39,403 bases of DNA from Candidatus Saccharimonadota bacterium (GTDB taxonomy: Bacteria; Patescibacteriota; Saccharimonadia; CAILAD01; BJGX01): NCBI GenBank assembly GCA_009691435.1, contig SICO01000002.1, positions 1 to 39,403 of the forward strand, read 5' to 3'. The position numbers and the translations under genes are program-made. This document shows, in pieces, positions 284-39,403 of the stretch (its first letter is position 1; each line of letters opens with the position of its first letter). The notes below the pieces were generated by a model. That model saw nothing but the letters and a program-made list of their open reading frames with translations. It was not told where the DNA came from and searched no databases.

Positions 284-679
284 TGGTGGAGCTGGTGGGA
301 ATCGCACCCACGTCCGCTAAACTTTTATAACATGATATCTACGAGTGTAGTTGGCCTAAATTTGTTTAACAAGCTCTTAGGCCATAAAAGCCAGCCTAAA
401 TAACCTTAGCACTTGCTTGCTAATTGTAGTCTTATTCAACACCTAGCAAGAAATGTTGCTGCAACCTGATAAATGACGCCGATAACCCCCTATCAGGTAT
501 CAAGGGATCGACGGCTAATGACAATTAAGCAAAAGCTGGTGCGAACTTTGGTGCAAAAGCATTACTAATTCGCGATACAAACGATTTTGCATTTGTAGTT
601 TTTTGAGAACAGCTAACGTGTATTCTCAAACCGACTCGCAATCATATTTCAAGATTCAACGTCGAAGCTTGTCAGCCCC
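284..679 (-). ncRNA. ssrA: tmRNA (transfer-messenger RNA)
   Basis: The minus strand starts 5'-GGGGCTGACAAGCTTCGACG (from 679). It ends GGACGTGGGTGCGATTCCCACCAGCTCCACCA-3' (at 284). These are the canonical tRNA-Ala-like acceptor and T-arm halves of tmRNA. An internal frame (590..525, minus) reads GCA AAA TCG ... GCT TTT GCT TAA, giving a candidate tag AKSFVSRISNAFAPKFAPAFA. Confidence 0.9.
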
Positions 680-10483: not shown

Positions 10484-11731
10484 CTACAGGGCCTTAAGAG
10501 CCTGAATAGGATGCTTTCTAGCGGCTTTAATGGCCGGTGCGACTCCGAATATAACTCCCACGAACAAACTCACTCCTACAGCGAGTACAAGTGCCTTAAG
10601 GCTAAATACTGGCGTGATACCAGCGAACTTGCTTACCAACATGCCTACCAGGTAGCTCAAAGCTAAACCACACAAACCGCCCATAATCGAAAGTATCATA
10701 GCCTCTATCAAAAACTGACCCAAAATGTTGCTACTAGTAGCCCCGATAGCCTTACGTATTCCAATTTCGCGAGTCCGCTCGCTAACAGTTACTAGCATAA
10801 TGTTCATGATACCAATCCCCCCTACAAGCAAGCTAATCGAAGCGATTGCTACGATAAAAGTAGTTAGCAAATCTAGAATTGTATTAAAGGTCGAGAGCAA
10901 ATCTGCTTGAGTTAAAACGCTAAAATCCTCCTGGCCACCATGGTTGCTTTTTAACGTTTTATTAATAGCTTCTTGAGCATTTGATATATTTTCTGGGCTA
11001 TCTACCTGCGTAATAATCCTAAAGACTTGGTTCAAGCCAGTAATTTTATTGGCGGTATTAATTGGCATATAAATCATATCATCAGCATTGGCACCAAAAC
11101 TAGTACCGCCATCAGACTTCTTGGTGACGCCTAGGACACTAAATTTCTGGCCGCGGATGGTTATTTGCTTACCAATTGCATCTGTCTCGCCAAATAAATT
11201 GTGCTTGGTATCCTCGCCTAGCACAATAACATTATTCCTTGCATCATTATCCTGCGGAGTAAAAAACCCACCGGCAGAATATTTTATTTGGGTAATATCA
11301 TCATAATTAGAAGTGGTGCCCACGATAAAGGGTGAGCTAGTTGATAGCTGGCCGTAGGTTACTACAGAAGATATGATATTATACGGTGCGGTGTGAATAA
11401 TGTGTGGGGTGCCTTCGATTGAAATAACGTCATTTTGAGTTAAGGTTGAGCTACCAATAGTGCTGGCGATATTAAAGCCCCCGCCAGAAGATTTTTGCTG
11501 CTGGCCATTTTTGGCACTACTCTCAGAGCCAATTTTGCCCGAATAAACAACCAATAAATTAGCGCCAAGGCTCGAAACCTCACTAGAAACCTGTGATTTT
11601 ACGCCGTCACCGATGCCAATCATCAGCAGTACTGCAAAAACTCCAATTATAATACCTAGCATAGTCAAAAACGATCGCATTTTAGCCGATTTGATACTAA
11701 TTAAAGCCATTTTGATATTTTGGAATATCAT
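10484..11731 (-). CDS. MacB/FtsX-type ABC transporter permease
   Basis: 415 aa with an N-terminal TM, a large periplasmic domain (MacB_PCD-like) and a C-terminal FtsX 3-TM bundle (ERTREIGIRKAIGAT). Confidence 0.85.
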   Translation of the reverse strand: MIFQNIKMALISIKSAKMRSFLTMLGIIIGVFAVLLMIGIGDGVKSQVSSEVSSLGANLLVVYSGKIGSESSAKNGQQQKSSGGGFNIASTIGSSTLTQNDVISIEGTPHIIHTAPYNIISSVVTYGQLSTSSPFIVGTTSNYDDITQIKYSAGGFFTPQDNDARNNVIVLGEDTKHNLFGETDAIGKQITIRGQKFSVLGVTKKSDGGTSFGANADDMIYMPINTANKITGLNQVFRIITQVDSPENISNAQEAINKTLKSNHGGQEDFSVLTQADLLSTFNTILDLLTTFIVAIASISLLVGGIGIMNIMLVTVSERTREIGIRKAIGATSSNILGQFLIEAMILSIMGGLCGLALSYLVGMLVSKFAGITPVFSLKALVLAVGVSLFVGVIFGVAPAIKAARKHPIQALKAL

Positions 11732-16347: not shown

Positions 16348-16406
16348 AATATTATTGTACCATCTAATAGATAGTACCCGCTCTAAACAAGCGAATGCTA
16401 TCTATT

Positions 16407-17050
16407 GCTATTAGCTAGCTATAAGCCGAATTTTGTACCCAGCACCTTTGTACCTATCAATCCATAGTAAAATAGTTGGGATTGAGCCGTAACTGCGTAC
16501 CCAGACTGGCTCAAATTGATATACACAAAGGTGTTGGGCGATGACCATCTATCTTAATACCTGCTAAAAGCAGGCACTACCTCCCGCCAATTCAGAGCTC
16601 CAAAATGGCTTGATGCGCTAAATTGGCGGGATGACGCGATATACCCTATAAAAAGACGAGAAGTCTCTCTGCCATAAAGGCAGAAGGGCCCATAATCTTG
16701 CAGCCGGTAGGGTTTACCTCCCACGATAGTCACCTATCATGGCTGGGGGCTCTTAACCCACTCTTTTCACCCTTACCCAGCACCTTTTTTAGCTATCAAA
16801 TCAGCTCTGCTACTGGCTGTAACTGATATTCAAAAAAGATGCTGGGCGGTATAGTTTCTGTGGCACTTTCCCTAGGATCACTCCTGGTTGTAATTAACAA
16901 CTACCGTTACTCTATGCTGTTCGGACTTTCCTCCCAGCACCTTTATACCTATCAAGTCAGTTCTAATATTGCCACTAAGGGCAAGGCTAGCCTGCCTTAT
17001 TCGAATTGATATGCATAAAGGTACCGGGCGATCATCCACTAGCTAATAGC
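16407..17050 (-). ncRNA. rnpB: RNase P RNA, bacterial type A core with large insertions (about 644 nt)
   Basis: The minus strand carries these elements.
- P1: GCUAUUAGCUAG / CUAGCUAAUAGC.
- P4 5' strand: GGGAGGAAAGUCCGAAC.
- GUGCCACAGAAA...ACCGCC.
- GGUAAGGGUGAAAAGAGUGGGUUAAGAGC.
- GGUAAACCCUACCGGCUGCAAG.
- P4 3' strand: ACAAAAUUCGGCUUAU.
All are in the same order as in E. coli M1 RNA. Confidence 0.92.
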
Positions 17051-17082
17051 CCGCATATTATAATATATTTATGCTTATATGT

Positions 17083-17493
17083 CTATTTTTGGCTATCTAG
17101 AACCTGGTTAACTATAGCGTCAGCTAATGTATTATCCTCACGATAAATATGGGTAAAGGTCAGGCTTAAGCCTGCTCCGAGCGCCTTAACCTTAGCATTA
17201 AGTGGGATAATATTGGCATTTTTAACCCGATATTGACCGTTGAGTTGCCTAACGATGAGCTGGCTATCCAAAAAGAAGTCGGCTTTTTTGATGCCCAATT
17301 CGTGCATTTTTTCGAGTGCGACAATCACAGCGCTGTATTCGGCATAGTTATTGGTCTGAATACCGAGATATTTACCTACTTCCTCAATAACTTCATTGTT
17401 CTGATTAAGAATAGCTACCCCCGAAGCCGAAGGCCCGGGATTGCCCCGAGAGCCACCGTCGCAAAAGACTATCACTGAGTCATTTTTATTCAT
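17083..17493 (-). CDS. rnhA: Ribonuclease HI
   Basis: 136 aa: VFCDGGSRGNPGPSASGV, NNYAEYSAVIVAL, FLDSQLIV and REDNTLADAIVN, giving the DEDD residues in canonical order. Confidence 0.85.
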   Translation of the reverse strand: MNKNDSVIVFCDGGSRGNPGPSASGVAILNQNNEVIEEVGKYLGIQTNNYAEYSAVIVALEKMHELGIKKADFFLDSQLIVRQLNGQYRVKNANIIPLNAKVKALGAGLSLTFTHIYREDNTLADAIVNQVLDSQK

Positions 17494-39204: not shown

Positions 39205-39280
39205 GGGCCCGTAGTGAAGTGGTTATCACGCCTCCCTGTCACGGAGGAGATCGCCGGTTCAAATCCGGTCGGGCCCGCCA
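39205..39280 (+). tRNA. tRNA-Asp (anticodon GUC), CCA encoded
   Basis: GGGCCCG-TA-GTGA-AGTGGTTA-TCAC-G-CCTCC-CTGTCAC-GGAGG-AGATC-GCCGG-TTCAAAT-CCGGT-CGGGCCC-G-CCA. Confidence 0.93.
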
Positions 39281-39287
39281 TAAAAGA

Positions 39288-39314
39288 AGACCACCGAAAG
39301 GTGGTATTTTTTTA
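39288..39314 (+). terminator. Intrinsic terminator after tRNA-Asp
   Basis: ACCACC-GAAA-GGTGGT stem-loop followed by ATTTTTTT. Confidence 0.8.
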
Positions 39315-39403
39315 TGATGAGCGCTCGGCGATTTGAACCGGCTCTAGAGAGCGTAGCGAACGGGCCGGTTAGACAGATGCTCCGGCAATCTGTCGCTATC
39401 CGG

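Follow-up and report, generated by a model that had tools for sequence, protein, structure and literature searches.

Three long hairpins with a common foot in the RNase P RNA gene of a Saccharibacteria genome, compared with intervening sequences and mobile hairpin elements

Intervening sequences (IVSs) of 23S rRNA occupy helices 25 and 45 in Salmonella, Yersinia, Leptospira and Campylobacter and are defined by their excision by RNase III. Other short repeats form hairpins as well: the Correia elements (NEMIS) of Neisseria and similar miniature inverted-repeat transposable elements (MITEs) such as ERIC, RUP and BOX, the palindromic elements of Rickettsia, which lie inside genes including RNA genes, and the REPINs, doublets of repetitive extragenic palindromic (REP) sequences that are mobilised by RAYT transposases. 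In RNase P RNA, short tandemly repeated repetitive (STRR) sequences are reportedly found inside helix P12 in heterocyst-forming cyanobacteria, and the 16S and 23S rRNA genes of the candidate phyla radiation (CPR) are said to carry insertions that are often much longer than those described below, some of them encoding homing endonucleases. Here we describe rnpB, the RNase P RNA gene of a Candidatus Saccharimonadota bacterium, which lies at 16407–17050 on the minus strand of a 39,403-nt stretch of contig SICO01000002.1 (hereafter, the window). Three of its helices, P3, P12 and one at the position of P19, carry long hairpins that share a basal stem, the foot, and comparison with related genes suggests that these hairpins are exchangeable cassettes.

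Like 23S rRNA IVSs, in which an extended hairpin (~70–150 nt) stands in place of the tip of a helix at the surface of a stable RNA, the rnpB cassettes replace helix tips, are sporadic among close strains and gene copies (two P12 alleles occur at 98.9% identity) and have long, nearly perfect stems; in a metagenomic 23S gene, the helix-45 site itself is occupied by a hairpin with the same foot. Unlike IVSs, they reside in RNase P RNA, at three sites of one 644-nt gene, and their foot sequence is common to several RNAs and phyla; excision, by which an IVS is defined, may or may not occur in them.

With Correia elements and other MITEs they share a short non-coding sequence, terminal inverted repeats, long hairpins in transcripts, many copies in operon spacers (in Kaiserbacteria-type contigs) and survival inside genes only where the product tolerates them. 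Unlike in those elements, neither a target-site duplication nor a transposase was seen, interiors are unrelated between copies, with 12–13 bp alone in common, and the copies in this Saccharibacteria genome were found only in rnpB (39-kb window). As in REPINs, two inverted conserved short sequences surround a less conserved spacer of ~70 nt, giving a hairpin of ~100 nt in many copies; each REP, in contrast, is a small palindrome with a GTAG head, and the repeated 12-mer described here, CCCAGCACCTTT, is not palindromic.

As with the cyanobacterial STRRs, members of a genome-wide repeat family lie inside a peripheral helix, P12, of an RNase P RNA that functions, and they vary from strain to strain, whereas STRRs are tandem heptamers in a single helix and the present cassettes are three separate palindromes of 70–100 nt in P3, P12 and P19. 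The hairpin that separates the 3′ strands of P2 and P4 occupies the position of helix P19 in type B (Bacillus-type) RNAs; unlike these, the window RNA is otherwise of type A (P13/P14, RF00010 the best family), and the helix reaches 102 nt. As in the CPR rRNA insertions, the same group of organisms carries extra sequence at variable helices of stable RNA genes; we know of no report on those insertions in which a shared 12-bp foot links rRNA, RNase P RNA and operon spacers. What appears to be new, to our knowledge, is that exchangeable hairpin cassettes have colonised three helices of a bacterial RNase P RNA and that their foot ties rnpB to rRNA and operon-spacer hairpins across the CPR and Omnitrophota.

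The rnpB gene of the window and its three hairpins

All three long hairpins contain the exact RNA 12-mer AAAGGUGCUGGG. Its plus-strand form, CCCAGCACCTTT, has exactly three copies in the 39.4 kb of the window (16438, 16776 and 16933), all of them within rnpB; in shuffled sequence the mean number of exact copies was 0.03, and none of 100 shuffles reached three. When up to two mismatches were allowed, the only extra matches in the window were the three complementary arms of the same hairpins, and this looser test is not significant by itself (6 matches against 3.3 expected), the significance coming from the exact-match test. On the minus strand the cassettes extend over 16933–17029 in P3 (97 nt, −41.3 kcal/mol, z −5.5), 16776–16847 in P12 (a short cassette of 72 nt, −32.7 kcal/mol, z −6.1, reported by cmscan as an insertion in P12) and 16438–16539 at the P19 position (102 nt, −39.4 kcal/mol, z −4.9). 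An original prediction, made from the sequence of the window, had placed most of the excess of the gene in three paralogous hairpins sharing an exact 12-mer at these three positions, and had assigned them to P3, P12 and the interval between the 3′ strands of P2 (16546–16540) and P4 (16436–16422); both statements were confirmed, and folding, as had been proposed, gave a long hairpin for every module (z −4.9 to −6.1).

The feet of the window modules consist of 16 bp followed by a small internal loop and at least 6 further bp; in the P3 cassette the arms are 26 nt long and 81% complementary. It had been anticipated that the 5′ strands differ and still pair, mostly through G·U or compensatory changes. 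The 5′ arms indeed carry four substitutions, all of them transitions, three of which give a G·U wobble; the fourth gives an A·C mismatch, and no double compensatory change was found among the window rnpB arms, the 3′ arm being identical in all three modules. Since the 3′ strand is rich in G and U, any transition in it breaks a pair, whereas in the 5′ strand, rich in C and A, substitutions of C>U and A>G yield G·U wobbles and are tolerated. This asymmetry explains the invariance of the 3′ strand without any special role for that strand. A shared base extending beyond the 12-mer, also anticipated, is present in all three modules, although the P12 copy departs from it by an indel: a 23-nt consensus requires a 1-nt indel, the spacing between the 12-mer and CTATCA being 5 bases in P12 and 4 in P3 and P19.

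The gene that carries these hairpins is 644 nt long and intact, and encodes an RNase P RNA of type A. The Rfam model RF00010 (bacterial RNase P class A) matched 16407–16998 on the minus strand with 154.6 bits (cmscan, E 4e-48, gathering threshold 100) over its full length (model positions 1–367), which places the gene within the family. The 5′ end given by cmscan falls wrongly within the P3 hairpin; P1 was read directly from the sequence and pairs 17050–17039 with 16418–16407 at 12 of 12 positions, setting the RNA start at 17050 (5′ strand GCUAUUAGCUAG, 17039–17050; 3′ strand CUAGCUAAUAGC, 16407–16418). The 5′ strand of P2, GAUGAUC (17030–17036), complements GGUCAUC (16540–16546), both read from the sequence, and the latter aligns with the P2 3′ strand of relatives. 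In the universal core, the P4 5′ strand region AGGAAAGUCCGAAC (16919–16932) aligned with GAGGAAAGUCCG, which is invariant in RF00010, and the P4 3′ strand ACAAAAUUCGGCUUA (16422–16436) with ACAGAACCCGGCUUA; both universal P4 strands (GAGGAAAGUCCG ... ACAnAAnnCGGCUUA) are aligned, and the closing helices P1 and P2 are present. Helices P13 and P14 aligned with high posterior probability and RF00010 was the best family of its clan; these two results support type A rather than type B, no separate search having been made for the type B helices P5.1, P10.1 and P15.1.

A sigma-70-like promoter, TAGACA-17-TATAAT (17057–17085, minus strand, 11 of 12 matches in a promoter scan), ends 7 nt 5′ of the first P1 base, and its TATAAT box is kept in relatives. 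Directly 3′ of the gene lies a terminator-like hairpin (16366–16406, minus strand), with a similar one 3′ of the gene in relatives. The three cassettes make up ~260 nt of excess. A further lineage-variable hairpin of 50 nt in the P15–P18 region (16582–16631, minus strand; 22-nt arms, 82% complementary) lacks the shared 12-mer and measures only 15–25 nt in three relatives (L124, L127 and L130). Taken together, rnpB of the window looks like a working type A RNase P RNA with its universal core intact. The prediction of an oversized type A gene of about 644 nt agrees with the RF00010 score, the complete P1, the 385–397 nt of small relatives and the 367 positions of the model, and the covariance-model alignment it had called for confirmed class A, with the second module as an insertion in P12.

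Gain, loss and exchange of the hairpins among related genes

Relatives, designated here by L numbers, were gathered through the contigs of graded UppP homologues, from 95% down to 55% identity; together with loci from a metagenome scan described below, they gave 16 distinct rnpB sequences including that of the window. Those UppP homologues that bear a name are Candidatus Saccharibacteria. The order RNase H-like gene, rnpB, sugar transferase gene was kept in all relatives fetched. The gene measures 669 nt in L120 and L121, 672 nt in L122, 674 nt in L167 and 675 nt in L160, against 475 nt in L129, 397 nt in L132 and 385 nt in L130 and L253. Long cassettes are missing at one, two or three sites in seven relatives (L124, L127, L129, L130, L132, L253 and L259), L259 having a large cassette in P3 only; where the modules of the window reach 72–102 nt at P3, P12 and P19, those of relatives have 15–26 nt. 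The comparison of related genes suggested originally thus found the long modules present in some and absent from others.

The third module had been thought to occupy a non-canonical site. This was not the case: a hairpin between the 3′ strands of P2 and P4 is found in all ten other distinct Saccharibacteria rnpB genes fetched by synteny, with lengths of 15 nt (L130, L259), 17 nt (L253), 25 nt (L132), 43–45 nt (L124, L127), 71 nt (L129) and 95–102 nt (L125 and the window clade). RF00010 itself has ~16 unpaired consensus columns at this junction, to which Rfam aligns the 16-nt hairpin GUCCGCCUCAGGCGGA of L130, indicating that extra nucleotides there are not unusual among type A seed sequences. 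P19 is ancestral in this clade, with only its length being new. In a distant lineage (L183, L207, L224 and L246) the P2/P4 junction consists of UAA only, without P19, and a 76-nt hairpin with the same foot in P12 is the sole large cassette.

Cassette types were defined by trimming the 13-nt arms and comparing the interiors in both orientations. The interiors of the three window cassettes are mutually unrelated. One interior, type A, is found at P3 in L120, L121, L122, L160 and L167 and at P12 in L122, L160, L167 and L125. Another, type B, stands in forward orientation at P19 in the window and in L120, and at P12 in L120, where the P12 and P19 interiors are identical (score 144/144). The window P19 interior is homologous to these in the forward direction (score 88) and to the P19 interiors of L121, L122, L160 and L167 as the reverse complement (scores 47–59); type B in these four lineages matches only when reverse-complemented (86–93 reversed against at most 22 forward). 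Unique interiors occur at P3 and P12 of the window (that at P3 being unrelated to types A and B), at P3 and P19 of L125, at P3 of L259 and at P19 of L129. L125 combines a type A cassette with a CCCAGCACC foot at P12 with CCCAGCCCC feet and unrelated interiors at P3 and P19.

Exchange can be followed within one species. L121 and L122 are 98.9% identical across 14 kb, and eight assemblies of their species show no difference in the 324-nt core, the P3 interior and P19; at P12, three carry a 98-nt type B allele (L121, L265 and L268) and five a 101-nt type A allele (L122, L123, L264, L266 and L267). As judged from these sequence comparisons, the long hairpins are labile cassettes that have been gained and lost, moved between sites and strains and, for one type, inverted between lineages.

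The arms also evolve in concert within genomes. When the arms at P12 and P19 are compared over their first 12 nt, mean identity is 9.1/12 within a genome against 7.0/12 between genomes, an excess with a permutation p of 0.00015 over 11 lineages and of 0.0028 over the 7 that lie outside the window clade. Even short hairpins are twinned, as GUCCGCCUCGGCGGA and GUCCGCCUCAGGCGG in L130 and, in L132, with both built on CUCACCAU/AUGGUGAG. One P3 base pair can be traced from C-G in L120 through U·G in L121 to U-A in L122, a stepwise compensatory change, and in 16 of 22 modules the fold of the sense strand is more stable than that of the antisense strand (mean difference 2.7 kcal/mol). The feet of P12 and P19 in L120 consist of 22 consecutive base pairs. 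Considering that substitutions lead to wobbles, that compensatory change proceeds stepwise and that the folds favour the sense strand, the hairpins have therefore been kept as helices of the rnpB transcript.

At the window locus the flanking order is ClpB-like ATPase, HIT, UppP, RNase H-like protein, rnpB, sugar transferase, GT1 glycosyltransferase, DUF4012 protein and a MacB/FtsX pair. The small RNase H-like gene directly 5′ of rnpB (Pfam RVT_3 / RNase_H; 17083–17493, minus strand) precedes rnpB in every Saccharibacteria locus fetched, the call in L257 covering only 70 residues. A near-perfect palindrome, CAAGGATTACCCTTGTGCAAGGGTAATCCTTG, lies ~40–75 nt into the RNase H–rnpB gap of L129 (locus ~11260–11300), 5′ of the rnpB promoter, and is not found in other relatives.

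The foot in rRNA genes and operon spacers

Metagenomes were scanned with the pattern CCCAGCACCTTT-N45–75-AAAGGTGCTGGG, which has 24 specified bases. At least 120 loci matched; among the matches listed there were 124 hairpins, 95 of them distinct, and rnpB core motifs stood beside the hairpin in only 9 loci. The cassette family is thus characterised by a foot of 12–13 bp, CCCAGCACCUUU / AAAGGUGCUGGG, which forms the terminal inverted repeats common to the 95 distinct hairpins, with shared arms of ~24 bp within Saccharibacteria and interiors mostly unrelated to one another. Arm conservation in this set is biased, since the pattern demanded exact arms; likewise, a difference between arms and interiors in orthologous intercistronic copies is not evidence for constraint, as the pairs were chosen by exact arms.

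A relaxed form of the pattern, with up to two mismatches per arm, gave no match in 870 kb of unrelated genome loci used as a control and only the rnpB copies in 345 kb of largely overlapping Saccharibacteria loci; in viral contigs the hairpin pattern had no match. Many copies throughout the genome had been named in advance as the mark of a generic repeat element. Such abundance was seen in metagenomes (at least 120 loci) but not in this genome, as the other 38.7 kb of the window contain no copy. In a separate genome scan, GATAGN{3,6}AAAGGTGCTGGG gave 119 single matches in unrelated taxa, which were dismissed as chance because 17 specified bases are too few; two Patescibacteria matches came without an RNase P gene.

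Exact-protein clusters identified the hosts of several loci as Kaiserbacteria (L164, L189, L196), Peribacteria (L223, L232), unclassified Patescibacteria (L182) and Omnitrophota (L150). The clustering of L150 with Omnitrophota proteins shows that the foot extends beyond the CPR. In rRNA genes, the hairpin of L154 lies 70–152 nt into the 16S gene, in helix 6, and 23S genes carry hairpins in L179, L169 and L249, that of L179 ending at approximately E. coli 23S nt 1181–1186, in helix 45, a classical IVS site. The relaxed pattern revealed two or three such hairpins with related interiors in single rRNA genes. Saccharibacteria 16S probe strings were not found in the hairpin-bearing 16S genes, whose hosts are Peribacteria-like.

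The Peribacteria-type 16S and 23S genes carry two or three hairpins each, of 63–84 nt, with the same foot or a compensated one (CCCCGCACC/GGUGCGGGG) and related interiors (GGUAACC ... GGUUACC), a parallel to the three paralogous hairpins of rnpB (L169 276–358, 979–1061 and 1344–1427; L232 6974–8125; L154 1048–1130 and 2722–2784; L223 1992–2074 and 2405–2487). Group I introns were observed in hairpin-bearing metagenomic 23S genes, three in L203 (2713–3680) and one in L179 (3962–4236).

A large class of copies is intercistronic. In L155, a Kaiserbacteria-type contig with three exact copies and five at up to two mismatches per arm in 7.8 kb, they stand between the ribosomal protein genes S3/L16, S17/L14 and L14/L24. 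Intercistronic copies run in the same direction as the flanking genes in all clear cases. In Kaiserbacteria-type contigs the same-foot hairpin is the middle part of an intercistronic element of ~190 nt with three hairpins (L155 730–827, 2059–2153 and 2603–2699; also L147, L163, L164, L187, L227 and others). The upstream hairpin, with a co-varying stem and the conserved loop AGGAGC.NAGCGAC, directly follows the stop codon; the downstream one, also with a co-varying stem, has a loop, CUAACUCGCUUCGCUCAUAAC, complementary to the first loop and is followed by the next start codon. The only Shine-Dalgarno-like sequence of the element is in the first loop, ~170 nt 5′ of that start codon. Interiors of intercistronic copies (L155 2085–2120; L187, L164, L227, L163 and L215) share TTGCYC and TATYATCC 17 nt apart; a promoter reading of TTGCYC-17-TATYAT was rejected, as the motif, although conserved when judged by eye, failed the threshold of the promoter scan and matched at only 3 of 6 positions in its first hexamer.

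A second intergenic class combines the same foot with an AT-rich interior of ~50 nt and is flanked by small hairpins whose stems co-vary (..ACUUAYGGAG..CRUAAGU..); it was found in L150 (4142–4216), L157 (3463–3537), L178, L205, L212, L226, L229 and L236. Searches of intergenic and intercistronic copies against Rfam returned nothing at the gathering threshold, and a permissive E-value search, confined to L155, returned one weak P26 match. A few pattern matches fall inside open reading frames (ORFs) of 777–1171 aa (L137 4850–4947, L192 3405–3502 and L222 3181–3260), in which AAAGGTGCTGGG would read K-G-A-G; they may be coding matches, chance or in-frame insertions.

Two other features of the window were recorded. 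A tmRNA gene (284–679, minus strand, 129 bits) has several insertions relative to the Rfam model, none of them with the hairpin foot, and a long predicted tag peptide, AKSFVSRISNAFAPKFAPAFA. At 39253–39342, a 43-nt inverted repeat, 74% complementary, joins the 3′ half of tRNA-Asp (39205–39280) to a downstream inverted partial copy; ARAGORN found no tRNA on the other strand there.

Origin and possible fate of the cassettes

The reading that we favour, and to which we would give about an even chance, is that the rnpB cassettes are hairpin elements akin to IVSs and MITEs that peripheral helices tolerate, that recombination homogenises and that are maintained as helices of the RNA. They would replace the tips of P3, P12 and P19 in an otherwise usual ribozyme; in established RNase P structures these helices point away from the catalytic core. 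Spread or exchange would proceed through the identical arms, by ectopic conversion, by transformation and recombination or through some enzyme, and cassettes would survive only in structured RNAs at places where a long helix can protrude without harm. The ribozyme would work as usual with its cassettes, and the hairpins may stay in the mature RNA or be trimmed, for example by RNase III. Of the three explanations offered originally, a hairpin element comparable to the CPR rRNA insertions is the best fit; simple internal duplication leaves unexplained why other phyla have the same foot in their rRNA genes and intergenic spacers.

Several results weigh against the element reading. Every copy of the foot found in the window, and in the 345 kb of Saccharibacteria loci that largely overlap one another, belongs to rnpB, and the window has no other long hairpin of the cassette kind. 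No target-site duplication is visible in the flanks, the "empty" state in relatives being a short hairpin and not a bare site, and the 39-kb window contains no transposase, recombinase or RNase III gene, no search having been aimed at RAYT. Across phyla only the foot is common, with unrelated interiors and flanks, which would fit the recognition site of a trans-acting factor at least as well as a transposon end. The 15–26-nt P12 and P19 hairpins of the small genes of L130 and L132, near-identical within each genome, are too short to be mobile elements, and no flipped interior was seen in more than 40 same-locus pairs from different samples. The restriction of copies to rnpB, the lack of a target-site duplication and of an enzyme, the short twins and the foot-only conservation would all fit a trans-acting factor that recognises the foot.

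Such a shared ligand is the alternative that survives best, and we consider it possible, at well under the probability of the element reading. The foot would be the RNA recognition site of one trans-acting factor, an RNA-binding protein, chaperone or processing enzyme, that docks at three sites of rnpB and elsewhere on rRNA and operon spacers, the hairpins co-evolving with their ligand. The exact foot is kept across four phylum-level groups despite unrelated interiors and flanks; most of its contexts are transcribed, with oriented intercistronic copies following their flanking genes; all copies seen in Saccharibacteria and Peribacteria are in stable RNA genes; and both the twinning of even the shortest P12 and P19 hairpins and the maintenance of helices on the sense strand would follow. 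The modules are, however, dispensable, close relatives lacking long hairpins at one, two or all three sites, and interiors have been swapped or inverted without change in the core. Moreover, the feet of sister Saccharibacteria have diverged (CCCAGCCCC, CCCAGCUCC, CCCCUCACC, UCCGCC) and the exact 12-mer is retained in distant phyla, where a ligand inherited vertically would predict the opposite; L125 has two foot variants in one gene, and no candidate protein was found in the window.

Alternatively, the hairpins could be true IVSs, cut from the transcript at their feet by RNase III or a related nuclease specific for double-stranded RNA, in which case mature RNase P RNA would consist of up to four base-paired fragments, as in IVS-fragmented 23S rRNA. 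We regard this as rather unlikely. The feet are long duplexes (22 consecutive bp in P12 and P19 of L120, 16 bp plus a loop and at least 6 bp in the window), the same foot caps helix 45 of 23S rRNA, other copies lie in rRNA genes with group I introns, and the distribution between close strains is sporadic. The M1 RNA of E. coli tolerates breaks in P3 and P12 and can be reassembled from fragments, and insertions in CPR rRNA are reportedly missing from transcripts. On the other hand, the window has no RNase III gene, the wobble and compensatory maintenance of helices is expected whether or not a hairpin is later removed, and we know of no IVS described in any RNase P RNA. A broader proposal, which seems to us slightly more doubtful again, is that the foot CCCAGCACCUUU/AAAGGUGCUGGG serves as a cross-phylum signal for one RNA-processing (or recombination) activity in the CPR and Omnitrophota, which would cut hairpins from RNase P RNA, 16S and 23S rRNA and polycistronic transcripts. 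If this were true, the ribozyme would be a non-covalent assembly of up to four RNAs, and the first fragmented bacterial RNase P RNA.

A purely internal duplication within rnpB followed by intragenic gene conversion, with no relation outside the gene, could account for the identical P12 and P19 interiors of L120, the greater similarity of arms within than between genomes and the lack of other copies in the window. It is very improbable, since the foot recurs far more often than expected by chance in the rRNA genes and spacers of other phyla, at loci whose flanks show that they are neither chimeras of rnpB fragments nor contamination; in addition, the window interiors are mutually unrelated and P19 is older than the long cassettes. 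Even less credence is due to invertible DNA switches, in which the inverted 12-mers would be recombinase sites and the interiors would flip within a population. The reverse-complemented type B interior, which separates L120 and the window from L121, L122, L160 and L167, and the spaced −35/−10-like motif conserved in Kaiserbacteria-type intercistronic interiors point in that direction, but the only flip is between lineages, with none in the same-locus pairs; P19 has one orientation in all eight assemblies of one species, the promoter scan did not accept the interior motif, no recombinase gene is nearby, and an interior of 45–75 bp is very short for recombinase synapsis. An assembly artefact or decaying pseudogene, to which three repeats within 650 nt (liable to confuse assemblers) and a score of 154.6 bits against 221.6 bits for small relatives might point, is scarcely credible, since independent NCBI, ENA, JGI and Logan assemblies show the same architecture, arms of at most ~26 nt are below usual assembly k-mers, core, promoter, P1 pairing and terminator are all intact, and the lower score results from the insertions and the mis-threaded 5′ end.

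Genes of 644–675 nt lie far above both the 367 positions of the Rfam model and the 385–397 nt of sister genes. Identical cores with different P12 cassettes amount to a natural swap experiment, which marks P3, P12 and P19 as helices that can be lengthened freely. In four phylum-level groups, the extra sequence of RNase P RNA, of 16S and 23S rRNA and of intergenic spacers is connected by one short stem, and this foot provides a searchable handle on the stable-RNA insertions of the CPR, on their nature, their spread and their removal from RNA. Excision of the hairpins, if it occurs, would make this a bacterial RNase P RNA in fragments; if instead the hairpins are bound, their foot would point to a new RNA-binding factor.

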